Below are positions 5,484-37,666 of a stretch of 37,666 nucleotides of DNA, in pieces (within the stretch, counting starts at the first letter, position 1; each line of letters begins with the position of its first letter). The stretch lies in the UHGV virus genome UHGV-0324630; one strand, 5' to 3'. The notes beneath the pieces are model-generated. The model had not been told where the DNA came from and ran no database searches. It saw only the letters and a list, made by a program, of their open reading frames with translations. Source of the stretch: a virus. Position numbers and translations under genes: made by a program.

Positions 5484-5605
5484 GAAACCAGAACATGCAC
5501 ACACAAAAAAACCGCTTGCCATGCCGCAATCGGTCAGGTTACATTTCCGCTGCACCTCATAAAACGGGTGCCGGGATTCTCAACCCGATACAGAGCAAAG
5601 CGCAT

Positions 5606-5626
5606 AACCGCGCTAGCGGTTTTTTT
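5606..5626 (+). terminator. Intrinsic terminator-like hairpin (AACCGC-gcta-GCGGTT followed by a T-run)
   Basis: GC-rich 6-bp stem, 4-nt loop, then about 7 T; 123 nt downstream of the stop at 5483. Confidence 0.5.
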
Positions 5627-5805
5627 GTGCGTACTGTATTGCCACGTCTTTTTCGCGTCAGAATTATGGCGGGGCGTACGGGGCCGACTTCGGTCGGGCC
5701 GGATTCTTTGCTCTCCGGTGTTGAGAACCCTGTACGTCTCGCCACCCCGAGATTCTCAACTCTGGATGGTGAGTTATTTCTATCACCGAGCAAAGAGGCC
5801 ACACC

Positions 5806-9379: not shown

Positions 9380-10339
9380 ATGAAAATTTGTATCGACGAC
9401 GGCTCCACCAACATCAAGCTGGCATGGACTGAGAACGGCGAACGCCGCAACGCCATCAGCCCGAACAGCTTCAAGTCGGAATGGTCTGCGCCGTTCGGTG
9501 GCACGCAGCCCGCGAACTACATGCTTGATGGCGTGCGCTATGGTTTTGATCCTGTCAGCGATCGCTTTGTCCAGACGACCGACACGCAATACCAATACAG
9601 CGATGTGAATGTCATTGCCATTCATCACGCGCTGGTCAAATCAGGCATCACGCCACAGGAGGTGGATGTGGTTGTCACCCTGCCACTGAGCGAGTATTTC
9701 GACACAAACGCACAGCCGGACATGGCCAACATCAACCGCAAAAAAGCGAACGTTATGCGCCCGGTGGAGTACCAGAACGGCAAAGCATTCACTATCCGTA
9801 ACGTACGGGTTATGCCTGAATCTATTCCGGCTGGCTTTAAAGCACTGGCTGACATGAGTCCGTTTGAATCCCTGCTGATTGTGGATTTAGGCGGAACCAC
9901 GCTGGATGTGGCAAAGGTTCAGGGACAACTGGCAGGTATCAGCCAGGTGTTTTGCGATCCACACGTAGGCGTTTCCCTGATGGCCGATGCAGTACTGTCG
10001 GTGATGGCCACTAACGGTATGCGTACCAGTCACCACATCGCCAATACCATTATCGAACATCGCCATGATGAAGCTTGGCTGCGCCAGCACATCCACAATG
10101 ACGCGCATTACGCCAGCCTGATGGCGGTTATTCGTGAAAAGGAAGAAACACTGAAACAACGCGTGATCCGCGCGCTGGCGGGTTTTTCGGGTTACGGGCG
10201 GGTGATGGTTGTCGGTGGCGGAGCGGAGATTGTGGCACCCGCTATCCGCGAAGCCTGCGGGGTTAATGCGACTTTCATCGCGGACGGGGTGCCACAGTTT
10301 GCTCTGGTTAATGGGCTGTACGCAATGGACAAGGAGTAA
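9380..10339 (+). CDS. parM: ParM/StbA-family actin-like ATPase (type II partition NTPase)
   Basis: 319-aa ORF; N-terminus MKICIDDGSTNIKLAW...ISPNSFKSEW...YQYSDVNVIAIHHAL and later PESIPAGF, IVDLGGTTLD, FSGY..VMVVGGGAE align closely with my memory of plasmid R1 ParM (MLVFIDDGSTNIKLQW...ISPNSFKREW...). Confidence 0.9.
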   Translation: MKICIDDGSTNIKLAWTENGERRNAISPNSFKSEWSAPFGGTQPANYMLDGVRYGFDPVSDRFVQTTDTQYQYSDVNVIAIHHALVKSGITPQEVDVVVTLPLSEYFDTNAQPDMANINRKKANVMRPVEYQNGKAFTIRNVRVMPESIPAGFKALADMSPFESLLIVDLGGTTLDVAKVQGQLAGISQVFCDPHVGVSLMADAVLSVMATNGMRTSHHIANTIIEHRHDEAWLRQHIHNDAHYASLMAVIREKEETLKQRVIRALAGFSGYGRVMVVGGGAEIVAPAIREACGVNATFIADGVPQFALVNGLYAMDKE

Positions 10340-10343
10340 ACCA

Positions 10344-10655
10344 ATGACGACACCAACCAGACGGATAAGTTTCTATCTGAAGCCCGCCGCCGTCAAGAAC
10401 GAAGGCGAAGCATGCGCCTGGCTGGACAGCCTTACACCAGAAGCCCGTAAAAACGGCCAACGCGTGGCTTTTCTGGCCGGGCTGGCGCTTCTGAAAATGA
10501 ATCCGGCAGAGGCTTACCGACTGGCAGCATGGGCTGACGATGAGGCGTTATCAGTGACACAAACCAGGACAGAACGCCCCCTGTCACAGCCAGTACCAAC
10601 CGCACAGATAACCAGTCAGATGGCCGGAAATATCAGGGCGTTATTTCCTGAATAA
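10344..10655 (+). CDS. parR: ParR-like centromere-binding adaptor (RHH family)
   Basis: 103-aa ORF from ATG 10344 (AAGGAG RBS); RISFYLKPAAVKNEGEACAWLDSLTPEARKNGQRVAFLAGLALLKMNP and C-terminal IRALFPE resemble R1 ParR (IAFKLNPDV...DSIPQGERSRLNRAALTAGLALYRQDP, LRSLFPKE) from memory. The longer track ORF from 10209 overlaps parM and is probably not the true start. Confidence 0.8.
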   Translation: MTTPTRRISFYLKPAAVKNEGEACAWLDSLTPEARKNGQRVAFLAGLALLKMNPAEAYRLAAWADDEALSVTQTRTERPLSQPVPTAQITSQMAGNIRALFPE

Positions 10656-10663
10656 CACAACGT

Positions 10664-10681
10664 CAGGGCGAGTTCGCCCTG
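10664..10681 (+). terminator. Stem-loop (CAGGGCG-agtt-CGCCCTG) just downstream of parR; possible terminator or stabiliser, no U-tract
   Basis: Perfect 7-bp GC-rich stem read directly from the sequence. Confidence 0.3.
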
Positions 10682-10718
10682 ATCTCCATCTCAGAACATA
10701 AACAAGAAGAGCGACTTA

Positions 10719-11102
10719 ATGAGCAAAATCAACTATCAGGCATTACGTGAACGTTATTCACCTGCACCAGTACCAAAATGCCCTATTTGCGGCGAAGAAA
10801 TGTCAATTCAGCGAATATCTGGAGCACAGGTTGTTTATGCCTGCTCCAGTTATGGTGATGATGGAGATTTCAAAGTTGGTCGAACTCTTGTCGACGAACA
10901 TTATGAAAAATCACGCGTAACAGTGTTGGATGTCGGGGCCCCTGAAGTATTGGCGCTACTTGATTGACTGGAAACCAAAGACAACCGAATCACTGAACTG
11001 GAAAAAATCGCCACTGACTATGCACTTAAATTCCAGAAAGCACAGGACGCATTAAAGTACGCCGCTTTGCTGCATAGCAGGACAGCGCAGCTAAAATACT
11101 AA
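10719..11102 (+). pseudogene. Zn-ribbon/coiled-coil small protein interrupted by an in-frame TGA at 10965..10967 (probable TGG to TGA nonsense change); 82-aa product if terminated
   Basis: ORF 10719..10967 (CPICGEEM...YACSS) stops at TGA, but the same frame continues protein-like for 44 more codons (LETKDNRITELEKIATDYALKFQKAQDALKYAALLHSRTAQLKY) to TAA at 11100-11102. Reading TGA as Trp gives a seamless ...LALLDWLETKDN... junction. Confidence 0.4.
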
Positions 11103-19085: not shown

Positions 19086-19474
19086 GCAACACATTTAAAT
19101 TCAGCAGCCGGAGCGAAAAGAATTTGCAGGGCGTAAATCCTGATCTGGTGAAAGTGACCCGACGGGCACTGGAAATCTCGGAAGTGGATTTTGGTATCAC
19201 CGAAGGGTTGCGCAGCCGTTACCGCCAGAAGCAACTGGTGGCCACGGGTAAGAGCCAGACCATGAACAGCCGCCACCTTACGGGGCATGCCGTGGATGTT
19301 GTGGCTTATATCGGCAGCCAGGTGTCATGGGAATGGCCGCTGTACGAAAAAATCGCAGCAGCATTCAGACAGGCCAGCCGGGAACTGAATATTCCGGTGG
19401 AATGGGGCGGCGACTGGAAGACCCTGAAAGACGGACCGCATTTTCAGTTACCACACGGAGCCTATCCGGCATGA
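19082..19474 (+). CDS. Endolysin, L-alanyl-D-glutamate peptidase (M15/VanY-like zinc peptidase)
   Basis: 130-aa ORF; HLTGHAVDVVAY ... WGGDW ... DGPHFQL fits the H-x6-D ... H zinc-binding pattern of M15 peptidase endolysins. Confidence 0.8.
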   Translation: MSNTFKFSSRSEKNLQGVNPDLVKVTRRALEISEVDFGITEGLRSRYRQKQLVATGKSQTMNSRHLTGHAVDVVAYIGSQVSWEWPLYEKIAAAFRQASRELNIPVEWGGDWKTLKDGPHFQLPHGAYPA

Positions 19475-19878
19475 AGCTCTGGCCCACGCTGGGCGTCGCT
19501 TTCCTTCTGATTGCCGCATGGGGAACATCCATGCGTCTGTCGTGGTCGCTGGGCCGGGAGAACGCCAGAAACGAAGCGCAGGCCAGCACCCTGAAAAGTA
19601 CCGTCGACACCCTGAATATCATCAGCGCCGGGGTACAGGATATGCAGCAGGTGCTGGCACAACTCCGCGTGGAAAATCAGCAACGCAATCAGGACGGAGA
19701 GGCCAGACGTGAACAGCTACGCAACGATATTGCAAAAGATGAATGCGCCCACGCTTTGCCTGATGCTCGTTTTACTGACAGGTTGCGCAGGCACGCTGAA
19801 CGCGCCACGGCCAGCGCCGTCAGTCCGGCTTATACCGCAGACGCTGACCATACCGGTAACGCCGCCCCCCTTCCCTGA
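19471..19878 (+). CDS. i-spanin (Rz/LysB-like): N-terminal TM anchor plus coiled-coil periplasmic domain
   Basis: ATG 19471 overlaps the endolysin stop (ATGA); MKLWPTLGVAFLLIAAWGTS then a charged, Q/R-rich helical region. Confidence 0.7.
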   Translation: MKLWPTLGVAFLLIAAWGTSMRLSWSLGRENARNEAQASTLKSTVDTLNIISAGVQDMQQVLAQLRVENQQRNQDGEARREQLRNDIAKDECAHALPDARFTDRLRRHAERATASAVSPAYTADADHTGNAAPLP

Positions 19879-26124: not shown

Positions 26125-26741
26125 TGGCATTCAGAATGAGTGAACAATCACGTACTGTAAAAATTTATAACCTGCTGGCCGGAACTAATGAGTTTATTGG
26201 TGAAGGTGACGCATATATTCCACCTCATACAGGGCTGCCAGCCAATTCTACAGATATCGCCCCACCGGAAATTCCTGCTGGCTTTGTGGCAGTTTTTAAC
26301 AGTGAAAATGAATCGTGGAATATTGTTGAAGACCATCGTGGTAAAACGGTCTATGACGTGGCATCGGGGGACGCGTTGTTTATTTCTGAACCCGGACCGC
26401 TACCAGAGAATGTCACCTGGTTGTCGCCAGCAGGGGAGTATCAGAAGTGGGACGGCGTATCCTGGGTGAAGGATGAGGAAGCAGAAAAACTGTTTCGGAT
26501 ACGGGAAGCGGAAGAGAAAAAGGCAAGGTTGATCCAGGAAGCAACAGATAACATCGCAATTCTGCAGGATGCAGTTAATCTTGAAATAGCAACAAACGAG
26601 GAAAATTCACAACTGGATTCCTGGAGAAAATACAGAGTATTAGTGAGTAGAATTGACACCAGTACAGCTCCGGATATCGTATGGCCAGAGCTGATGAATC
26701 AGGGTTATGTGCGGGAGGACGAGCAGATAACTTCAGACTGA
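26124..26741 (+). CDS. G: Tail fibre assembly chaperone (Tfa/gpG-like)
   Basis: 205-aa ORF, ATG overlaps the H stop (TAATG); sits directly after the fibre gene. Confidence 0.8.
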
Positions 26742-27268
26742 AATTTAGTGATGAATGTTGAATCATCTGGAATATCATGCAATACCAATGCATGAGCACC
26801 TATTGTGACATTGTTTCCTATACGCACTTTGCCACCAAGAATGGTGGCATTACAACCAATGGTCACATTATGTCCTATAACAATATCCATATCATTAAAA
26901 TCACCACGCAGCCCAATAGTTACCCCTGGTTTTATTGAACAATTTTCACCGATTGTTACTTTGTGACCGATAACAACACTGTTGAGATAAGAAATATCAA
27001 AGCCTTTCCCTATATTTACAGTTAAAGGGACTGTTACATTATATTTATCAAGAATGAAACGTTCTATTTTCCCCGCAATCTTCCGACAGTATCCGCCTTT
27101 ATCAAAAAGGTATTTGGCTATGCGCCACCAAAATAAATAACGAACTCTTCTATGTTTTATTGCGCGAACAATTGCCTTTCGCCAGGAGAAAGGACGCTCG
27201 CTACCGATTACTTCATAGTGAATACAATCTTTAAGTTCATTAATATTCATATCTCTATTATTCAGCAT
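26705..27268 (-). CDS. Hexapeptide-repeat (left-handed beta-helix) acyl/acetyltransferase; AT-rich cargo gene at the position of the P2 Z/fun locus
   Basis: 187-aa ORF; tandem hexapeptide repeats [21 protein letters not shown]...[34 protein letters not shown] typical of LacA/Maa/WbbJ-type transferases; convergent with and overlapping the tfa 3' end. Confidence 0.8.
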
Positions 27269-27391
27269 AAGATAATCATGTGACCAATTATTGTAATAAT
27301 TTTAATGGTATGTTTCTACTGGCTATCCAGCGTGTCTGATGTCCAGTAACAAATCGTTAACACTGGTGCAATCAAATGGTGAGTGTTAAGA

Positions 27392-27431
27392 CTGGCCACT
27401 TATTACCAGGTATGAGGGTATGAGTGGCCAG
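27392..27431 (-). terminator. Stem-loop (9-bp stem CTGGCCACT/AGTGGCCAG) immediately downstream of gpU on the minus strand; no clear U-tract
   Basis: Perfect 9-bp inverted repeat with about 22-nt loop, read directly. Confidence 0.3.
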
Positions 27432-27438
27432 CATTAAA

Positions 27439-27933
27439 TCAGAACAGCCCTTTAACTGAACTGGCCGCGCTGTTAAGGGATGATGTCACTTTATCTTTGA
27501 AGCCGGACAGCATATCGCTGAACGATGAGGATTGCAGGCGCTCCCGCAAATCCTCATCACAGCGTTCAAGGGTCAGTGAAAATTCTATCTTTTTCGCCTT
27601 ACCGTAGCGATCAAACTCGGAACGGGTCGTATTCGTTTCGGTCAGGACATACATGCCGTAAATCTGCCCGACGCCATCAATAAGAGGCCAGGGGCGTCCT
27701 GTATACGCCTGCGTGGTCAGCAGCGACAGCGACACTTCGCCACCTGTAATTTCAGGATAAAGCACACCAGAAAGAACGATGCGATCATCACCTGCACCGA
27801 TATACTGCCAGCTTGCTGAACGGTTAACGCGTTCATTTTTCACATGCCGCCAGCTTTTGTTTTGCTGTAACTGCTGATGCGGCAGCGTGCGCAGCTCAAA
27901 AACAAACATGCCGTAGATCATCATCATGGCCAT
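27439..27933 (-). CDS. U: Tail protein U, P2 gpU-like
   Basis: MAMMMIYGMFVFELRTLPHQQLQQNKSWRH...VLYPEITGG...WPLIDGVGQIYGMYVLTE resembles P2 gpU from memory. Confidence 0.85.
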   Translation of the reverse strand: MAMMMIYGMFVFELRTLPHQQLQQNKSWRHVKNERVNRSASWQYIGAGDDRIVLSGVLYPEITGGEVSLSLLTTQAYTGRPWPLIDGVGQIYGMYVLTETNTTRSEFDRYGKAKKIEFSLTLERCDEDLRERLQSSSFSDMLSGFKDKVTSSLNSAASSVKGLF

Positions 27934-27939
27934 GACTCC

Positions 27940-30783
27940 TCAATCTTTATCGTAAAAACTGCCACGCCCGGCACGGGCGCGCCGTTCCATTTCTGCCCTG
28001 ACCATTTCACCGACCAGTTTCGCCAGTTCGCGGGGATTCTGCGTAACAACGTTATGCAGATGAACATGAATTTCACCACCAAATCCGGAGGCAACAGGCT
28101 CCCGGTTACGGGAAGTTACAGGAACTGATGCCACTGGAGATCGTATGGCCTCCGCCACCGGGCGGGAGCTGGCCGCAACAACAGGGACCAGCGCCGGAGG
28201 CAGCGGAGCCGGGACCACGGGTGTGATATTAATTGCGGGGGCAGGCTTACTGACCTGCGCAATCTTCCGCTCCTGCCACTCTCCACGAACAGCAAGTGCG
28301 CGGGGCAGGTTCTTAAAGACAATATCGCCGGGGCCAATGCGTTTTTTCGTCTCATCAACCAGCTTACCTGTGTTATCAGCAATTTTGCTGAGTCTGCGTA
28401 GCGTCCCGGTATTGCTGTCTGTGAGCGGTTTGTTGTCTTTGGGTTTATTACCTCCGGTGCCATTGCCATTTTCCACAGGCTTCGGCGGATTGATTTTCGC
28501 CAGGTCACCCTGAAGCAAGGCAACCTTGTCCTGAAGAATGGCCGCACGCTGTGCGTCTTCGATTTTCTTGCGCGCTCTTTCCGCTTCATCCGGAAGGACG
28601 CCAAGTTTTTCAAGTATCCACGCCAGCGTATCCAGTAGCATTTTTGCAGGTGTCAGAACAAGCTGTAACGCACCGCCAAGAACGTTACCGAATATCTCGC
28701 CAGCACTGGTACATTTATCCAGCGTTTCCTTGCTGGACTCCATCGGTGACAGCAGCGATTTAAACCAGTTAAACACCTGGCTGATCCCGCTTCCGATTGT
28801 GTCAAAAACAGGACCAAACCGTTCAAAGGTTTCGCGCAACGGGGTCAGCCTTTCCATAATCCCGCTGAACACCCCGGCAAAAAATGCCCTGATGGGATCC
28901 CAGTATTTCCAGATAAGAACGGCAGCTCCGGCAAGCGCAGCCACGATAAGACCAACCGGACTGAACAGCGCCCCGATAGCGCCTCCCAGTAAAGAAACGG
29001 AACCCGTCACCATTCCCCACAGCGCAGGCAACACCCTGACGACATTCATTGACCGGGTAAGAATGTCAAAACCAAGACGCAGGGTGGCCAGCTTCCCGTA
29101 AAGCACCCCAATAACCAGCGACAACGAGCCAATCGTTGCAGTCATTGCCAGCAACGCACCGCCTGCTATCAGTAGCTGGCGCGTCAGTACCGGATGGGCC
29201 TGCGCCAGCGAGGTGATTTTTTCAAGCACCCGCGTGAGCCACTGCGTGACAGAACGCAGCGGACCGTCAACCAGATCACTGATGCGAATACGAAGACCTT
29301 CCCATGCGCTGTCGAGATTTTTCAGGTCCCCATCAAGATTATCGGCCATTACTTTTGCGACGCGATCGGCCTCTCCCCTTGCCCCCTGCAATTCTCTGGT
29401 CAGTTTTTGCAGCTCTCCTGAACCAGCCGCCGCAACAAGCGTCTGCAAACCAACGAACGCCTCTTCTCCGGCGATGTCCTTGAAGAAGGAAACCTGGTCC
29501 ACCTGTCCGTATTTTTGTGTCGCCTTATAGAGATCAAGCAGCACATCCTCCATCGGGCGCATTTTGCCTCTGGCGTCAGCAACTGACACCCCCAGCTCTT
29601 TCAGTGCATCAGCCGCAGCTTTTGGCGGTGATGCAAGGCGGGACAGACTTGCGCGCATGGCCGTACCAGCATCGCTTCCGCGAAGACCATTATTGGCAAG
29701 CATCCCGGCCATGGCTGCCGCTTCTTCAAGACTGATACCAAGTTTTGCGGCAACCGGACCGGTATACTTCATGGTTTCGCCCAGCGCGCGTAAATCAGTA
29801 TTGGTCCGGGTGAATGCTGCTGTCAGCGTATCGCCAACACGGTCCATTTGATCGGCTGTCAGGTTGAACTGTGTGAGGATATTGGAGCCTATATCAGCCG
29901 TCTCGCCGAGTTCGACGCCACCTGCCAGCGCCATATTAAGAACACCGGGCAATGCGGCCTGAATGGCCTGCGGAGTAAAACCAGCCATTGCCAGAAAGCT
30001 CTGCCCACTGGCGGCATCACTCGCAGTAAACTGTGTTTCAGAGCCAAGTTTTAACGCCTGCTCACGCAGCGCCTTAAACTGCGGGCTGTTTTTGTCGATT
30101 CGCGTCAGTGCCTGAACACGGGACATCTCTTTGCCGAACCCGATCGCAGGCTGCAAAAAACGCCCGGCAGCATAGCCGCCCGCCGTTGCCGCACCAATTG
30201 CCAGCGCACCACCTGTTTTCAGTTTTCCCGCTGTTTCCTGCGCGCGCGAATACCGCTCACGCGCCCGTGTTACACGCGCAAGCGCCTGCCGTTCGCGTTC
30301 AAGCTGGTTGTTGTACTGTTCGGTGCGTCTGATGGCCTGCTGGATGGTGTTATCGCTGCCTGTCAGGGAAATGCCGTGGCGTTTCAGCTCTCCGCCAAGC
30401 TCCCGCATTTTCTGAATTTCCCGTGTGCGCGATTCATTCAGGCGTTCAAGCCGGGTGCTTAACTGCTGCATCAGCTTTTGTTGTTTTTCGCTGAGCACTG
30501 TACCCGTGCGTTGTAACTGATTAAGGGCGTTAAGCTGGCGTCGTGCTTTCAATATGCCAGCATCCGCTTTACTGACAGCGTCACGGGCGCGCTCAAATGA
30601 ACGCGCCTGACGCTCGAGATTTTTGATCGCCCCCTGCGTTCGCTGGATGGAGTCACCAAACTGCCCCATCAGGCGGCGGGCGTTTTCGGCAGGCCGGGTC
30701 AGCCTGTCAACGGCGCTGAAAGCGACCCGGATGTCAAGAGTCTTCATTGTCTGCATTCCCGCTGCGAAGTGCCGCCCGCTCAC
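27940..30783 (-). CDS. T: Tail tape measure protein, P2 gpT-like
   Basis: 947-aa ORF; long coiled-coil N-terminal half, Gly/Ala-rich hydrophobic central segments, position between E/E' and U. Confidence 0.88.
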   Translation of the reverse strand: MSGRHFAAGMQTMKTLDIRVAFSAVDRLTRPAENARRLMGQFGDSIQRTQGAIKNLERQARSFERARDAVSKADAGILKARRQLNALNQLQRTGTVLSEKQQKLMQQLSTRLERLNESRTREIQKMRELGGELKRHGISLTGSDNTIQQAIRRTEQYNNQLERERQALARVTRARERYSRAQETAGKLKTGGALAIGAATAGGYAAGRFLQPAIGFGKEMSRVQALTRIDKNSPQFKALREQALKLGSETQFTASDAASGQSFLAMAGFTPQAIQAALPGVLNMALAGGVELGETADIGSNILTQFNLTADQMDRVGDTLTAAFTRTNTDLRALGETMKYTGPVAAKLGISLEEAAAMAGMLANNGLRGSDAGTAMRASLSRLASPPKAAADALKELGVSVADARGKMRPMEDVLLDLYKATQKYGQVDQVSFFKDIAGEEAFVGLQTLVAAAGSGELQKLTRELQGARGEADRVAKVMADNLDGDLKNLDSAWEGLRIRISDLVDGPLRSVTQWLTRVLEKITSLAQAHPVLTRQLLIAGGALLAMTATIGSLSLVIGVLYGKLATLRLGFDILTRSMNVVRVLPALWGMVTGSVSLLGGAIGALFSPVGLIVAALAGAAVLIWKYWDPIRAFFAGVFSGIMERLTPLRETFERFGPVFDTIGSGISQVFNWFKSLLSPMESSKETLDKCTSAGEIFGNVLGGALQLVLTPAKMLLDTLAWILEKLGVLPDEAERARKKIEDAQRAAILQDKVALLQGDLAKINPPKPVENGNGTGGNKPKDNKPLTDSNTGTLRRLSKIADNTGKLVDETKKRIGPGDIVFKNLPRALAVRGEWQERKIAQVSKPAPAINITPVVPAPLPPALVPVVAASSRPVAEAIRSPVASVPVTSRNREPVASGFGGEIHVHLHNVVTQNPRELAKLVGEMVRAEMERRARAGRGSFYDKD

Positions 30784-31263
30784 GCCAGCTAACCACTTCG
30801 CCGGGCGTCATCATGAAGATTTCGGCGGGCGACCAGTTAAAAATGGCGGCAATATCCGCCACCAGATCTTCGATGTGCTCAAAGCACACCAGGGTGATTA
30901 CGCTGCCGTCTCCTGCACGCTCTTCGCGCCAGAGTCTGGCTCGCTCATAAAATTTACAGCCACAGCGCACAACTGAATAAAATCGCGTGACGACATTTTT
31001 TTAATCATCACTTCATCCAGTCGTGGCGAGGTCACGCGAGGCAACAGCGTGAACATGGTATCCGCTTTCAGATTCAGCACATCAGACAGCGACAGACCAC
31101 GCAGGGATCCAGCCTGCTCAATAGCCCCGGTGATCTCCACATACGTGATTTTTTCGCCACCACGCTCAATTGGTCGGGTCAGTTTTACGCCACGCTCGCT
31201 GGTTTCTTTCACAGTGTCAGCAACGACCGTATTTTCGGTATCGATGTTTTTCGTCACTTTCAT
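30734..31263 (-). CDS. Tail assembly chaperone gpE+E' (predicted -1 programmed frameshift product)
   Basis: The -1 frame is open from inside the A7 run to 30734 and overlaps the tape measure start, the classic G/GT, E/E' arrangement. Confidence 0.6.
30898..31263 (-). CDS. E: Tail assembly chaperone gpE
   Basis: 121-aa ORF downstream of the tube gene; its 3' end holds an A7 slippery run and overlaps a -1-frame ORF (E'). Confidence 0.8.
   Translation of the reverse strand: MKVTKNIDTENTVVADTVKETSERGVKLTRPIERGGEKITYVEITGAIEQAGSLRGLSLSDVLNLKADTMFTLLPRVTSPRLDEVMIKKMSSRDFIQLCAVAVNFMSEPDSGAKSVQETAA
30996..31002 (-). promoter_or_regulatory. Candidate -1 ribosomal frameshift (slippery) site: A7 on the coding strand (AUU AAA AAA AUG)
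   Basis: Seen directly as T7 on the plus strand; the -1 frame carries a TAA just upstream and is open only from within the A-run. Confidence 0.5.
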
Positions 31264-31317
31264 CAGGAAACTCCTTTCAGTCAGAGGCGACGCACTGCGC
31301 CGCCTGCATATTACTTA

Positions 31318-31830
31318 TCAGCCAAGCCCGAGCGCGGAACGGATGCGATCGGGCACAATGTCCTTGCCGTCCTTCCGGTAAATGAAGTTCAGCAGGTCAA
31401 TCTCCCACAACGGGCGATCGTTAACACTCAGCTTGTAGTAGGTGTTTTTAATGGCGTAAGTGTGTGATGTGGCTTCGCCCTGTTTGGCTTCCCCCATATC
31501 AATTTCCGTCACACGTCCGCGCATTTCGACTTCATACAGGTCGCTTTCATCATCGGTGTAGTATTCACCCGCAAAACGCAGTAGCGTGCCGTCAATCGTG
31601 CCGCCATACTTCAGGAACAGCTCACGAACTGCGCCCCCCATGACAAAGCTCGCATCAAGCGCGGAGTCGTCCAGACCGAGATCAATACTTACCGCCCCCA
31701 TCATGCCACCACCCCGGTAGCTGTCGGTTTTGCGCGTCAGTTTAGGCAGGGTGACGGACGTCACCTTACCCACTTCGTTTTCACCATCCACAAACAGCGT
31801 AAAAAAGCGAAGATGTTTTGGTACAGCCAT
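31318..31830 (-). CDS. FII: Tail tube protein, P2 gpFII-like
   Basis: 170-aa ORF immediately downstream of the sheath gene on the minus strand. Confidence 0.88.
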   Translation of the reverse strand: MAVPKHLRFFTLFVDGENEVGKVTSVTLPKLTRKTDSYRGGGMMGAVSIDLGLDDSALDASFVMGGAVRELFLKYGGTIDGTLLRFAGEYYTDDESDLYEVEMRGRVTEIDMGEAKQGEATSHTYAIKNTYYKLSVNDRPLWEIDLLNFIYRKDGKDIVPDRIRSALGLG

Positions 31831-33014
31831 CAGGCACCTCCCAGCACCGCAAATGCGGGACCAAAGAATTCATCAGTAAACGACTGGTAAAGCTCCATGT
31901 CTTCCAGCGGAGGAACGGGCGTATATTTGTAGCGAATACGCACACGCCCCTGACGTAAATTCGTGGTGCTGTTATCCACGATGTCATACCAGCACTCCGC
32001 GCCAATCAGTTTCCCGGCAGTAACCAGTGAATCCAGTTTTGCCCTGATGGCACTGATAACATCCTTCACGTTCGCAGGCGTCAGTGGACTGTCGATGGTT
32101 TCAAACTGCGCTTCCGCAATTGAATCAGCCAGCACCTGTGCAGTTCGGGTATACACCTCAAAGATGTAGGCGTTCGTTTCCGGTGTGCGGTTGCCCCAGA
32201 AGCGGAACCCGTTGCGACGAATAATGGTCGTGATTTCTTTGTTGTTGAGGCTGTTGGCATCGCTGTCTTCGGCCTGCAACGACCAGAACACATGCCTGGA
32301 CATCCCCAGCACATTTTTAACCGGAACATTGGACAGTGATTTGTGCCATCCCTGCTCATGGTCAATGTACGCACGAAGGCCGCACGCATAGGCAGGCGCG
32401 GGGAACGTTTCGTTTTTGCCACTTTTCGGGTTGTAGGCGATGAAGTCCGGCCATAAGAGCATCACCTCACGTTCATTGAATTTCTGGCGGTAGGTAATCG
32501 CCTCAGCCATCGTGTTACAGCCGTGACATGAGGCATACACAAACGCGCGCAGTTTACCCGCAATCACGCACAGGGATTTTGTTACCGCCTCCGTATCCAG
32601 CTCCGGCGCGGCCAGAATACGCGGACGGTATCCGATGCTTTCATCCTGCTCTGCAACAAGCAGCGCATACATCCCCGTATAGCTGCCGTCAGATTCAGAA
32701 CCACCGATAACCAGTTGATCCTGCGTTTTTCCGTCTTCTTCTTTGTGTTCAGCCACGCGAACGACGATCACCTTTGTGCTCACCTGGTCTGCGATGGCCT
32801 TAAGCGCACGATAAAGCGTCCCCGTTGTTCCGCATTTTCCCAGCACGTCATTGACGCGGGTCAGCAGTGTGGGCTTGTTCAGCGGGAACAGCTCCGCGTC
32901 CGCATCATCCGCCATTGCCACGATACCGATAACACTGGAATCAACATCATTAATCGCTGTTACCAGGTCGGTACTTTCCGTAACACGGGCACCATGAAAA
33001 CGAGTTTCACTCAT
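31830..33014 (-). CDS. FI: Contractile tail sheath protein, P2 gpFI-like
   Basis: 394-aa ORF; size and position match P2 FI (about 396 aa). Confidence 0.9.
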   Translation of the reverse strand: MSETRFHGARVTESTDLVTAINDVDSSVIGIVAMADDADAELFPLNKPTLLTRVNDVLGKCGTTGTLYRALKAIADQVSTKVIVVRVAEHKEEDGKTQDQLVIGGSESDGSYTGMYALLVAEQDESIGYRPRILAAPELDTEAVTKSLCVIAGKLRAFVYASCHGCNTMAEAITYRQKFNEREVMLLWPDFIAYNPKSGKNETFPAPAYACGLRAYIDHEQGWHKSLSNVPVKNVLGMSRHVFWSLQAEDSDANSLNNKEITTIIRRNGFRFWGNRTPETNAYIFEVYTRTAQVLADSIAEAQFETIDSPLTPANVKDVISAIRAKLDSLVTAGKLIGAECWYDIVDNSTTNLRQGRVRIRYKYTPVPPLEDMELYQSFTDEFFGPAFAVLGGA

Positions 33015-33171
33015 AGCTTCAGCCCCTTGTATCCGTTAAATGATTCGGCAACAATCATCACCCACCACGCGCGTAATCTCACCCCTGCGCCGTTCTCCCG
33101 ACCCGGCGACAACAAAAAGCAGTAACCCCCTCCGCACGCACATGCGACCATGCCGCACAGGGAGGGAACAG

Positions 33172-34281
33172 ATGACCGATACCACCATGCAATTGCTCAG
33201 TCAGGGCACAGACCCCGTGAAAATGCCGGATTTTGATATTCTCGCGGAGGGTAAAACGCTGTCAGGCGTGGCAGAGCGCCTGATGAGCCTGTCACTGACC
33301 GACAACCGGGGATTTGAGGCGGACCAGCTCACCATCACGCTGGATGATGCGGATGGTCAGTTGCAGCTACCGCCACGGGGCGCGCGCCTGACGGTTCTCA
33401 TTGGCTGGAAAGGAGAACCGCTGACAGAAAAAGGCACTTACATTGTTGATGAAATCGCTCACGAAGGACCGCCGGACAGGCTGACTGTTTCAGCCAGAAG
33501 CGCAGATTTTCGGGATGAATTTAACGTTAAACGTGAAGTGTCCTGGCATGATGTGACCGTTGAGCGCGTGGTATCCGCCATCGCTCATCGGTATGGTCTG
33601 AAACCGCAAATCAGCGAAATGCTGATGGATATCGAAATCGACCACGCCGACCAGACCGAAGAAAGCGACATGTCCTTCCTCACGCGCATGGCGGAAATGC
33701 TGGGCGCAATCACCACGGTAAAAAGCGGTAACCTGTTATTCATCATGCCCGGCGGTGGCGTGAACGCACAGGGCCAGCCGTTGCCCTCGTTCGCCATCAC
33801 ACGCAGCAGCGGCGATCGCCATCAGTTCCGCATTGCTGACCGCGAAGCGTATACGGGGGTACGCGCTTACTGGCTTGATCTTAATTACGGGAAAAAGAAA
33901 AAAGTCAGCGTGAAACGCCGCAAACCGCCAAAACCCAAAAAGGAGAAAAGCAGCAGCCGTGAAGGTGATTATATGGAAGGCGCAGAAGGCAATGTGTTTG
34001 TGTTACGCAAGACTTATCAGAACGAGCAGGCAGCAAGACGCGCAGCGGCGGCAAAGTGGCAGCAGCTACAACGCGGAGCCGCATCATTTTCCATCACGCT
34101 GGCGCGTGGACGTGCAGAACTCTACCCCGAAATGCATGGCACGGTAACAGGATTTAAAAGCGAGATTGATAATCAGGACTGGATTATTGCAAAAGCCGAG
34201 CACACTATTGATGACAGTGGCTTTACCACACAGCTTGAGCTTGAAGCAAAAATCCCGGAATGGATAGCGGAAACAGAATGA
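33172..34281 (+). CDS. D: Tail/late control protein D, P2 gpD-like
   Basis: Start taken at ATG 33172 (GGAGGG RBS); about 369 aa. The track's upstream extension from 33040 overlaps the sheath-gene upstream region and is rejected. Confidence 0.88.
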   Translation: MTDTTMQLLSQGTDPVKMPDFDILAEGKTLSGVAERLMSLSLTDNRGFEADQLTITLDDADGQLQLPPRGARLTVLIGWKGEPLTEKGTYIVDEIAHEGPPDRLTVSARSADFRDEFNVKREVSWHDVTVERVVSAIAHRYGLKPQISEMLMDIEIDHADQTEESDMSFLTRMAEMLGAITTVKSGNLLFIMPGGGVNAQGQPLPSFAITRSSGDRHQFRIADREAYTGVRAYWLDLNYGKKKKVSVKRRKPPKPKKEKSSSREGDYMEGAEGNVFVLRKTYQNEQAARRAAAAKWQQLQRGAASFSITLARGRAELYPEMHGTVTGFKSEIDNQDWIIAKAEHTIDDSGFTTQLELEAKIPEWIAETE

Positions 34282-34680: not shown

Positions 34681-35820
34681 GTGGGAAACAATAAAGTGAA
34701 ATTAGGAAGAAATGATAAGTGCTGGTGTAATTCAGGACTTAAGTATAAAAAGTGCCATCTTGGTCGAGACCGTGAAACTCCGGTATCCAAAGCCGAGGCA
34801 CTGAAATTTTCAAAGTCTCTCTCGCAGAGAAAGGCATGTTATGCGCCAGCATCCATGCACGAAGATTGTGATAAACGCATCGTTCAGGCGCATACGATAT
34901 CTAAGAGCAGTAGCCTTAAGGCGATCGCCGACTCCAGCAATCACGTCATGGGGGTGATAATGAACTTAGCAAGCCTGATGAGAAACAACGGAAAATGGCT
35001 TCCCGAGAAGATCGGTATCAATCAGGCATCCACTTTTACAGGATTTTGTGCAGTTCATGACAGAATCTTGTTTTCATGCCTAGAGAACGAAAAATTTACA
35101 GGCACGGACGAGCAGTGCTTTGCCTTAATGTTTCGTTCATTGTCTAAAGAAATTTACGCCAAAGAAGGGGGAGTGCTATCTTCCGATTTTGCTAAAAATG
35201 CCGATAAAGGAAAGCTACAAGTTGAACAGTATTATATTCAGAAATTAATCGACCAGCACCAAAGTGGCTTAAATGCAGCAATAATTGAATTAAATAATCT
35301 TAAAACTAGCCTCGACCGCATCCTACTTAGCAGGCAATTTTCAGAAATTGAAAGTGTTATCTTCACTTTTGCAGAGCCTTTACCAATTGTAGTTTCGTCA
35401 ATTCTTTCACCGGAGAGGGATTTCGATGGGACCAAAATTCAGGATTTGAGCGATCTTACAGTGTCGGCGGAACAAGTATGTTTCAATGCTTTTTCCTGCG
35501 GAGGTAAGGGATATGTAGTGTTCAGTTGGCTGAGAACTTCAACAATTATCAGACGTTTTATACGGACACTAATTAAGATCCCGGCTAACAGGATGTTCAA
35601 TACCCTTCTGTATTTTTTCTTCACAAAGGCCGAAAATACATATTCATCCCCTGAGTGGTGGGACAGGCTCAGTGATAAACAGCGAGAGAATATCGGCAAC
35701 ATGATTATGTCAGGGGTTGAATTTTTTGGCAGACCTACATCACAGGTTGATCATTCCGTTGATTATAACGCCGCTGCACTTGAAGAGATAACATGCAGCA
35801 ACAACGAAATTTGCAGCTGA
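34681..35820 (+). CDS. Uncharacterised protein with N-terminal SEC-C-like zinc-binding motif (C-W-C-x8-C-H); AT-rich cargo gene inserted between gpD and ogr
   Basis: 379-aa ORF (GTG start, start uncertain; alternative GTG at 34696); N-terminal KCWCNSGLKYKKCH; rest unrecognised; strongly AT-rich with about 400 bp and about 290 bp non-coding flanks. Confidence 0.65.
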   Translation: MGNNKVKLGRNDKCWCNSGLKYKKCHLGRDRETPVSKAEALKFSKSLSQRKACYAPASMHEDCDKRIVQAHTISKSSSLKAIADSSNHVMGVIMNLASLMRNNGKWLPEKIGINQASTFTGFCAVHDRILFSCLENEKFTGTDEQCFALMFRSLSKEIYAKEGGVLSSDFAKNADKGKLQVEQYYIQKLIDQHQSGLNAAIIELNNLKTSLDRILLSRQFSEIESVIFTFAEPLPIVVSSILSPERDFDGTKIQDLSDLTVSAEQVCFNAFSCGGKGYVVFSWLRTSTIIRRFIRTLIKIPANRMFNTLLYFFFTKAENTYSSPEWWDRLSDKQRENIGNMIMSGVEFFGRPTSQVDHSVDYNAAALEEITCSNNEICS

Positions 35821-36370: not shown

Positions 36371-36561
36371 CAGGCAGAATTGCCGGAGTAACAAAAAAAC
36401 GATAGATTACCCGCGGGTGCCTTTCGGCTGATGGTCGGAGGGAATACCCGAAGGCCGGATGTGGAAAGGCCCCGGAAAACATTTCTGTTTAACCGAGGCC
36501 CTAACATATCTACCTTAAGCAAGTGATAGGTTAGCGCCTCTCCAACAAAGGAGCAAGCGCT

Positions 36562-36702
36562 ATGTCGCAAAAATCGCTTACGGCCATCACGTTCTGCGTG
36601 ACGGTAATCCTCATCATCTGGATGCTACACGGTTCGCTGTGTGAAATACGGATGAGCTTCTGGGGAGCGGAGTTTGCGGCGTTCTTACAGTGTAAGCAGT
36701 AA
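36562..36702 (+). CDS. Hok/Gef-family type I toxin (small membrane toxin)
   Basis: 46-aa ORF with AAAGGAG RBS: MSQKSLTAITFCVTVILIIWMLHGSLCEIRMSFWGAEFAAFLQCKQ; N-terminal TM helix then the SLCEIR motif characteristic of Hok/SrnB/PndA; not in the ORF track (below 60 aa). Confidence 0.8.
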   Translation: MSQKSLTAITFCVTVILIIWMLHGSLCEIRMSFWGAEFAAFLQCKQ

Positions 36703-36790
36703 GGAAACCGCGACGGGGGAGCAATCCCCCGTCAATCGGTTGCTAAGGTTGGCTGAAGTGGCACCCTATCTCACAGACATGAACAACAAA

Positions 36791-36822
36791 CCCGCAGCGT
36801 AAGAACTGCGGGTTTTCTTTTT
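36791..36822 (+). terminator. Intrinsic terminator (CCCGCAG-loop-CTGCGGG then TTTTCTTTTT) ending the hok-like transcript
   Basis: 7-bp GC-rich stem followed by a U-rich tract, read directly. Confidence 0.6.
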
Positions 36823-36890
36823 GGAACTATCACTAGCTAGTGTACCGTTAACGGCACATAATGCTCGCACAACAAACCTGTTAAAAGAGA

Positions 36891-37172
36891 TTACTCAGCA
36901 TTCTCCTGCTTCCATTGCCGGATCATTTCATCGGTAACATCACCCTCATAACATACCACGTCATACCCTCCATTACGGCTATATGCACTGCGTCCACCAC
37001 ATCTACTACCATTCCTTGCATGATTAAAAGGACACGCACAATTGCCTGGATAAGATTCAATGGATTCTTTAATTATTTCTTTTTTGATCTGAGCATCAGA
37101 CTTTCCTGTTGCTGCATATCCACTAAAAGATACTAAACAAAGGCAGATTGCCATTAATAAACCACATCGCAT
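36891..37172 (-). CDS. Small secreted cysteine-rich protein (signal peptide), unknown function; AT-rich
   Basis: Start taken at internal ATG (MRCGLLMAICLCLVSFSGYAA signal-like N-terminus); mature part has 5 Cys; true start uncertain (track ORF extends to 37286). Confidence 0.45.
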   Translation of the reverse strand: MRCGLLMAICLCLVSFSGYAATGKSDAQIKKEIIKESIESYPGNCACPFNHARNGSRCGGRSAYSRNGGYDVVCYEGDVTDEMIRQWKQENAE

Positions 37173-37453
37173 ACCGATACACTCTATTACTAACCAATCA
37201 TAGCCCACATCATAAAATCGAGATGAGGAGCACAATACCTTTAACAAGAAGGTGTCATAACGATAATATGTCGTGCAATTCATCAAAAAAAAGATCTATA
37301 TCAAAGAGATAGAACTCTTATCAGTGCTTCAGACATCGGCATTCGAGGCAGCAGAAAAACAGTAAATCTGACGAATTTGCCTTTTCCCAAGATGTTGTCA
37401 GATTAAAAAGATAGATTAGCGCAGGTACCTGTTGGTGGATTGCAGGAGGAAAA

Positions 37454-37558
37454 ATGAAGTCGAGTGGAAAAATCCCAGAAAAATTTTTGTTTAACAGAGG
37501 TCCTGGTTCACTATGCGAAATACGGAGGAGCTGCAGAAGAATTCTGCTTCATCCTTAG
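37454..37558 (+). pseudogene. Degenerate second hok-like copy: retains the GSLCEIR-encoding segment but lacks the hydrophobic N-terminal helix
   Basis: 34-codon ORF MKSSGKIPEKFLFNRGPGSLCEIRRSCRRILLHP; nucleotide similarity to the first hok copy (ggttcactatgcgaaatacgg vs ggttcgctgtgtgaaatacgg) with three synonymous third-position differences. Confidence 0.3.
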
Positions 37559-37644
37559 AGTTTAAACAGCACGTGCACTACCATTGTTTCTGCATATCGC
37601 CACACCATCGCCACTCTACCGCCATTGCACAAAATACAAATACG

Positions 37645-37666
37645 AAAAAACCACCCGAAGGTGGTT
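37645..37666. terminator. Hairpin AACCACC-cgaa-GGTGGTT preceded by A6 at the window edge; terminator-like (U-tract on the minus strand; plus-strand tail cut off by the window)
   Basis: Read directly; window ends inside the 3' arm. Confidence 0.35.

Follow-up and report, generated by a model that had tools for sequence, protein, structure and literature searches.

A probable hok/sok-type toxin-antitoxin cassette without the overlapping mok frame, carried beside ogr in a defective P2-like prophage

Introduction

The textbook type I toxin-antitoxin system of the Hok family is the hok/sok/mok locus of plasmid R1, which encodes a small membrane toxin of 52 residues with an LCE motif. Its mRNA of about 400 nt has its two ends clamped together by the tac and fbi elements, and Hok synthesis requires translation of the overlapping leader gene mok at least up to the hok Shine-Dalgarno sequence (SD) (PMC9841398). 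In the same system, mutations that destabilise the final 3' stem-loop of this mRNA in its truncated form abolish toxicity (PMC9841398). The antisense RNA Sok, about 60 nt long with a 5' tail and a hairpin, originates from a promoter that overlaps the hok SD. As regards function, R1 hok/sok is described as stabilising plasmids and as reducing the plating of phage T4. A second reference system is hokW-sokW of the Stx2 prophage Sp5 in E. coli O157:H7, an experimentally shown pair of a toxin and its antisense antitoxin that raises the release of Sp5 after induction (Takada et al. 2021, PMC8621323). The diversity of the toxins themselves has been catalogued in a study that deliberately left out Sok, Mok and mRNA structure (Escalera-Maurer et al., bioRxiv 10.1101/2025.08.07.668861). 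Finally, the chromosome of E. coli K-12 carries hokA to hokE, which belong to the same Pfam family as the toxin described below. Several chromosomal hok loci of this strain are reportedly functionally dead, as Pedersen and Gerdes are said to have found in 1999.

Here, we analyse a locus at the end of the window, i.e. the whole stretch of viral DNA under study (UHGV-0324630, 37,666 nucleotides). We consider it very likely (probability of roughly 0.85) that this locus constitutes an intact type I toxin-antitoxin cassette of the hok/sok type. It would be cargo of a defective P2-like prophage inserted at leuZ in a chromosome of the E. coli O157:H7 type, and occupies the right end of that prophage, on the ogr side. 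The locus is already known: RefSeq annotates it, its product falls into a named family of phage proteins, a Hok catalogue lists it, and it is widespread. What sets it apart is a single trait, the absence of the overlapping mok leader gene known from the textbook system.

Results

A Hok-family peptide under purifying selection

The toxin gene is a hok-family open reading frame (ORF) of 46 codons at 36562..36702 (plus strand), and RefSeq labels the identical gene on these coordinates WP_000078920.1, 'Hok/Gef family protein'. The preliminary description, made from the letters of the sequence, had quoted this ORF, assigned it to the Hok/Gef family and credited it with a strong ribosome-binding site (RBS). 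The ORF is present exactly as quoted, the SD is AAGGAG at 36548-36553, 8 nt upstream of the ATG, and a formal search places the peptide inside the family. Indeed, it matches the Pfam HOK_GEF profile (PF01848) with 30.1 bits, above the gathering threshold of 22 (E = 3.7e-7), residues 7-44 aligning on profile positions 5-42 of 42. The profile of PHROG 251 ('MokW-like host killing') gives 82.8 bits (E = 2.5e-23). Among the NCBIfam models, the HokA equivalog (NF007290) is the best one, with 35.8 bits for a cut-off of 89, followed here by the Hok family subfamily (NF007279) with 23.6 bits for a cut-off of 73. Because these scores lie far under the cut-offs, the peptide belongs, as judged from profile comparison, to the Hok family without being orthologous to HokA or to the Hok subfamily of the R1 type.

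The peptide has a hydrophobic stretch from L6 to L22 and contains all seven conserved Hok residues (M1, C12, T14, L26, C27, E28 and E37); at logo positions M1, C16, T18, L30, C31, E32 and E41, these are shared by more than 80% of 1264 Hok peptides (Escalera-Maurer et al., bioRxiv 10.1101/2025.08.07.668861). The exact 46-aa sequence is entry 1628 of cluster 72 in that catalogue, and the toxin of the window shows no protein-level difference from cluster 72, PHROG 251 and WP_000078920.1. Two representatives of the cluster, 72_1621 and 72_1589, were cloned and tested for toxicity, and the only constructs named as non-toxic are 19_179, 60_1482 and 69_1540, none of which belongs to cluster 72 (bioRxiv 10.1101/2025.08.07.668861). 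As 72_1621 differs from the window peptide at residue 15 only (V15A), 72_1589 being the variant of Stx phages, the toxicity of the 46-aa peptide is presumed here from the literature on its one-residue variant 72_1621. A comparison of 53 distinct intact hok coding sequences, which encode 21 proteins, gave dN < dS in every case, and these codon comparisons indicate that the toxin is under purifying selection.

The label 'MokW-like' suggested an identity with hokW-sokW, and both loci are indeed Hok-family type I systems of an E. coli O157:H7 prophage. This identity is ruled out by the published primer sequences: HokW of Sp5 has 51 residues and starts with MKQQKAM, unlike the window toxin, and its mRNA has the 5' end GCGGGUGCUUGAGGCUAUC (PMC8621323). 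The RefSeq/PHROG designation 'MokW-like host killing' of the window family is, by this comparison of sequences, only a name. Stx phages carry the window hok family separately, downstream of lom.

A conserved RNA architecture around hok

The elements of the sense transcript, all on the plus strand, are listed below.

36380..36408, plus strand: putative hok promoter, with -35 TTGCCG (36380-85), a 17-nt spacer and -10 TAGATT (36403-08)
36415..36429, plus strand: predicted 5' end of the hok mRNA with a tac-like element, GGGUGCC at 36415-21 plus an extension
36534..36560, plus strand: predicted hairpin sequestering the hok SD, with the anti-SD CUCC (36540-43) paired to GGAG (36550-53)
36712..36733, plus strand: GC-rich 3' hairpin just past the stop codon, GACGGGGGA at 36712-36720, loop GCAA, TCCCCCGTC at 36725-36733
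36752..36766, plus strand: fbi-like element, GGCACCC at 36760-66 plus an extension, predicted to pair with the mRNA 5' end
36788..36822, plus strand: intrinsic terminator of the hok transcript, stem 36788-36797/36806-36815 (10 bp), 8-nt loop and T-run to 36822

The putative hok promoter matches the sigma-70 consensus at 8 of 12 positions and was unlisted by a promoter scan. Its position and its conservation point to a promoter: the TTG of the -35 and the T, A..T of the -10 persist among homologues from ogr, lom, J and IncI1 contexts, although the rest of their upstream DNA is unrelated. The 5' end of the mRNA is placed at ~36415 because the Rfam sok/hok-leader model (RF01794) aligns end to end with 36415-36572; position 1 of the model falls there, 6-7 nt past the -10. 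This full-length match (1-157) scores 44.8 bits (E = 1.8e-8), below the gathering threshold of 59, and five homologues score between 42 and 51 bits; the leader of an R1-type locus matches the same model but with 87.2 bits. An Rfam scan had been proposed as a check in the preliminary description: at gathering thresholds, it returned nothing at the hok locus, and the leader match came from an E-value scan. Although RF01794 bears the name 'sok antitoxin', its match lies on the hok-sense strand in the window (36415-36572) as well as in the R1-type locus (L009, 282-453), and covers the stretch between the mRNA 5' end and the hok AUG. In practice, this family models the hok leader and not the Sok strand.

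The RNA architecture downstream of this 5' end is conserved. In the minimum free energy (MFE) structure of the 410-nt transcript, whose folding has a z-score of -7.6 versus shuffles, 36415-29 pairs with 36752-66. The core of this closure (36415-21/36760-66) was found in the MFE structure of 14/14 homologues folded separately, and the tac-like element at 36415-21 is identical in all 14. Over the alignment, 96% of the cells of this tac-fbi helix pair versus 35-52% in slid controls, and six of its pairs show one-sided changes that preserve pairing. No double compensatory change was seen in the helix in the alignment of homologues, because its 5' arm is invariant. Besides, the homology among loci of different genomic contexts stops just past GGCACCC. 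This 5'-3' pairing, as predicted by folding, fits the tac/fbi clamp of hok mRNAs (PMC9841398). In the RNAalifold consensus, the 5' end pairs locally instead, with 36461-36474, and this predicted structure resembles the alternative tac stem of the processed RNA.

The SD hairpin (36534-60) was closed in both MFE and partition-function folds, whether the RNA was full-length, 3'-truncated or Sok-blocked. Beyond the stop codon, the GC hairpin had been announced at about 36711..36732; it is present, one base further to the right, at 36712-36733, where it can also be written GACGGGGGA-GCAA-UCCCCCGUC. Four of its pairs display compensatory changes (GC/AU, AU/CG) among 14 homologues. As a GC hairpin also follows the stop codon in the R1-type locus, the hairpin of the window is presumed to act by analogy as the 3' end protector of the processed mRNA. 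The intrinsic terminator, likewise announced, is found with the stem and T-run given above. It also scores on the minus strand and is present, with a changed sequence, in most homologues outside Stx phages.

A predicted Sok-like unit at the R1-equivalent position

Two further elements, located on the minus strand, make up a predicted antisense unit.

36528..36556, minus strand: putative sok promoter, with -35 TTGCTC (36556-51), a 17-nt spacer and -10 TAACCT (36533-28)
36460..36521, minus strand: predicted Sok-like antisense RNA of ~60 nt, with a 5' tail, a long hairpin (reverse complement of 36468-36500) and a UUUCC tail

The layout of the putative sok promoter is that of the R1 type (TTGCGC-17-TATCCT), including the overlap of the -35 with the hok SD. 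It is weak, with 7 of 12 matches to the sigma-70 consensus, and was unlisted by the promoter scan. The -10 region, AGGTTAGCGCCTC, is invariant in 13 BLAST-collected homologues, so that position and conservation together suggest a promoter. The predicted RNA folds at -25.4 kcal/mol (z = -3.3), has the architecture of the R1-type Sok region, with its 5' tail and hairpin, and occupies a position equivalent to R1 Sok through the Rfam model alignments. Its ends (~36521 to 36460) are deduced from the promoter and the predicted hairpin, and a Sok-like RNA would be expressed from the minus strand. Neither the antisense RNA nor a mok-like leader had been resolved by eye in the preliminary description; the former can now be placed, as a prediction, at the R1-equivalent position, but the latter is absent.

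The mok frame is missing and not conserved

In the window allele, no ORF starting with ATG, GTG or TTG spans the hok start. The R1-equivalent GAGG is kept (36495-98) and, unlike in R1, is followed by AUA in place of the mok AUG, no frame leading to the hok SD. For comparison, the R1-type hok locus of the IncFII plasmid pMTY1886 (L009, 310-609) has an ATG at the mok position in frame with hok. In this plasmid, one frame of 99 codons extends from a GTG at 310 through all of Hok, of which RefSeq annotates only a fragment of 33 codons. The leader of the window contains two short ORFs.

36459..36518, plus strand: leader ORF of 19 codons, MWKGPGKHFCLTEALTYLP, from an invariant AUG, with its stop at 36516-18, 44 nt before the hok AUG
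36431..36526, plus strand: leader ORF of 31 codons, ending well upstream of the SD hairpin

Neither of them qualifies as a mok analogue. In two homologues, ACG replaces the ATG of the 31-codon ORF, whose frame is also shifted by indels. The 19-codon ORF was discarded as a conserved gene or mok equivalent on the basis of 77 distinct alleles, mostly from viral contigs, in which the ORF opened by AUG 36459 has a length of 1 to 79 codons and is in some cases a mere start-stop (AUG-UGA, AUG-UAG). Given this variation in length, what conserves the AUG is probably a constraint on the RNA and not on a coding sequence; the AUG might be a place where ribosomes land and not the start of a gene. In the same survey, an ORF crosses the hok start in only about one third of the alleles, and its start and frame vary from allele to allele. 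This argues that a mok frame is not conserved in the cluster 72/PHROG 251 lineage. The Hok frame, by contrast, is intact in about 70 of the 77. With dN < dS throughout, the toxin is thus under purifying selection, whereas the mok frame is not conserved.

Unlike in R1, Hok translation would have to be switched on without a mok frame that leads to the hok RBS. A mechanism in which Sok binding would free the anti-SD to close the hok SD was considered and found unsupported: in the partition function, the SD hairpin is equally closed with and without the Sok target blocked. As this hairpin is closed in every modelled thermodynamic state, none of these states yields an activation step and the allele could be poorly translatable.

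Distribution and genomic setting

The 451-nt locus is common: 1755 of 5426 complete E. coli genomes have it. It is also carried by P2-like Xuanwuvirus phages such as P88 (98% identity), by Stx2 phages downstream of lom (83% identity), by IncI1 and other plasmids, and by a Citrobacter phage. An ogr-like zinc-finger gene directly precedes the cassette in 40 of the 73 distinct loci with flanking sequence. When the one-genome-per-species contigs were scanned with a pattern, nine stretches came up, which added only Salmonella and E. albertii; four of the nine were chance matches without hok. Three loci on contigs named Xanthomonas pisi, Planococcaceae MAG and Vagococcus sp. (L016, L017 and L020) were set aside since their identity of 84-98% to the E. 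coli locus probably reflects contamination. Some genomes and viral contigs contain two hok loci of the cluster 72 type in tandem (L010, 1-603; L047, 4368-5164; L131), for instance next to serS in STEC1012.

In contrast to the plasmid setting of R1 hok, the 46-aa toxin of the window lies in a prophage. The window matches a stretch of the chromosome of E. coli O157:H7 strain PV15-279, with 100% identity over the compared segment 36380-36830. In the RefSeq annotation of the same coordinates, a P2-like prophage is flanked by yecA and the leuZ-cysT-glyW tRNA genes, with the integrase on the left and ogr-hok on the right. The left junction can be recognised by a partial tRNA-Leu 3' end (44-97), and the right junction is in leuZ, just past the end of the window; no att repeat of at least 12 nt was found between the two ends of the window. 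The prophage is defective (defect regions 19460-19783 and 29079-34281): an internal stop interrupts its holin gene, IS1203 (31444-32657) and an IS30 fragment truncate the tape-measure gene, and of gene D only a VgrG/Pvc8-like piece of 744 nt is left. At the corresponding prophage end of E. coli O157:H7 EDL933 (L026, 988-2833), an IS30 replaces D'-ogr-hok. The cassette is present in PV15-279 and deleted in EDL933, the reference O157:H7 strain.

Downstream of the terminator, the remains of a second copy lie outside the active module.

37365..37535, plus strand: decayed second copy, with the ogr 3' end, the hok promoter and leader, then hok codons 24-33 ('...FLFNRGPGSLCEIRRS')

This copy has lost ~128 nt that comprised the sok promoter, the SD and the hok start. 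Region 37302-37666 is also found beside leuZ in a strain whose P2-like prophage has other cargo after hok, and the wider query 36823-37666 had no match among sequenced phages. Between the hok terminator and the decayed copy, 36891-37172 (minus strand) encodes a small cysteine-rich protein with a hydrophobic N-terminus that belongs to PHROG 27544, of unknown function; its gene is retained in EDL933, where hok is lost.

Several other genes of the prophage were recorded in passing. A 379-aa 'YecA family' protein with an N-terminal SEC-C-like motif (CWCNSGLKYKKCH) and no PHROG match is encoded at 34681-35820, between D' and ogr. In the early region (5552-5749), the Hfq-binding RNA isrK (63 bits) adjoins the C4 antisense RNA (78.5 bits), both above the Rfam gathering thresholds. 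Plasmid-type segregation cargo, consisting of ParM-like and partition/stability genes, is located at 9563-10841, right after the replication endonuclease gene. Within 26316-28421, a macro-domain protein gene stands between the tail-fibre gene and its assembly gene, and a serine O-acetyltransferase gene follows just after on the opposite strand; both are possible cargo of the tail-fibre region.

Discussion

The features assembled here, namely a Hok-family peptide under purifying selection, a conserved transcript with a predicted clamp and a predicted Sok-like unit at the expected place, support the reading of this locus as an intact hok/sok-type cassette. By homology with R1, it would operate as follows. 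A weak constitutive promoter (36380-36408) would produce a stable mRNA of ~400 nt, which would be silent at full length, its 5' end (36415-29) being clamped to its 3' end (36752-66) and the hok RBS being held in a local hairpin. Slow trimming from the 3' side, back to the GC hairpin (36712-33), would then remove the clamp. A short-lived antisense RNA of ~60 nt (promoter 36556-36528, RNA from ~36521 to 36460) would pair with the leader and inactivate the mRNA, probably via RNase III. Upon loss of the element or of its transcription, the antisense RNA would decay first, so that the 46-aa membrane peptide would be made and the inner membrane damaged.

What such a cassette does for its carrier is less certain. 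The stabilisation and abortive-infection roles put forward in the preliminary description are still speculative. Stabilisation of the element, or addiction, is in our opinion the most likely single role, although its chances stay somewhat below even; a contribution to lysis upon induction and the exclusion of other phages both appear unlikely when taken one by one. We favour selfish stabilisation, with modest confidence, because the same cassette is found on IncI1 plasmids, in lambdoid and P2-like phages, and in a prophage that is incapable of making particles. The strongest competing explanation, which we regard as possible but doubtful, is a module of benefit to the phage rather than an addiction device: the loss of Sok at induction would lead to early membrane damage by Hok and to more phage release, or the cassette would exclude superinfecting phages such as T4. 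In this respect, deletion of hokW-sokW halves the yield of Sp5, and HokW appears after mitomycin C in a RecA-dependent manner (PMC8621323), but HokW is not the toxin of the window: it has 51 aa, starts with MKQQKAM... and follows another leader. Prophages are about four-fold enriched in hok genes, and in the 40 of 73 distinct loci mentioned above the cassette sits directly downstream of ogr, a late activator; yet the host prophage of the window, with its broken holin and tape-measure genes, cannot make phage and keeps the cassette nonetheless, and phage release is irrelevant to the IncI1 plasmids that bear the same one. Regarding exclusion, the lowered T4 plating described for R1 hok/sok has to be set against the reported absence of hok enrichment near defence systems.

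A more radical view is that the cassette of the window is a silent relic: without a mok frame to the hok RBS, the native transcript could not yield Hok and the allele would be functionally dead. Such a relic would be in keeping with the mandatory translation of mok up to the hok SD in R1 (PMC9841398), with a hok start that no ORF spans and an AUA at the R1-equivalent mok start after the conserved GAGG, as well as with an SD hairpin that is closed in all modelled states. The setting goes in the same direction: a defective prophage surrounds the cassette, a decayed hok copy lies nearby and ogr-hok is entirely lost from EDL933. However, most alleles of the lineage (about two thirds of the 77) are mok-less, and Hok nevertheless remains intact with dN < dS. 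This argues that Hok is expressed and selected without mok. Moreover, the sok promoter and the tac/fbi elements are invariant, and a dead cassette would have no reason to keep them. On balance, we judge a silent relic to be improbable. Finally, a chance hydrophobic ORF that merely looks Hok-like in a structured intergenic region can be dismissed as extremely improbable: statistics are weak for short peptides and the NCBIfam HokA and Hok-family models stay far under their cut-offs, but the Pfam score exceeds gathering, PHROG 251 matches at E = 2.5e-23, every conserved Hok residue is present, dN < dS holds over 53 distinct coding sequences, and a near-identical peptide is among the tested constructs without being named as non-toxic.

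As a tentative proposal, to which we give clearly less than an even chance, the cluster 72/PHROG 251 lineage would work without a mok leader gene: Hok would be translated directly after mRNA processing, and the Sok-like RNA, whose action would take place over 20 nt upstream from the RBS, would rely only on duplex-triggered decay or on a change in structure.

To conclude, the discovery value of the locus itself is small, and its interest lies in a lineage whose toxin stays intact under purifying selection although mok is not conserved. This work also maps in detail the RNA control elements of a Hok lineage that about one third of complete E. coli genomes carry, elements which the authors of the catalogue had left unanalysed. 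If confirmed, a mok-free control would be a natural variant of the hok/sok circuit, and a lineage without conserved mok would offer a convenient natural test of the obligatory leader-peptide coupling in hok/sok.
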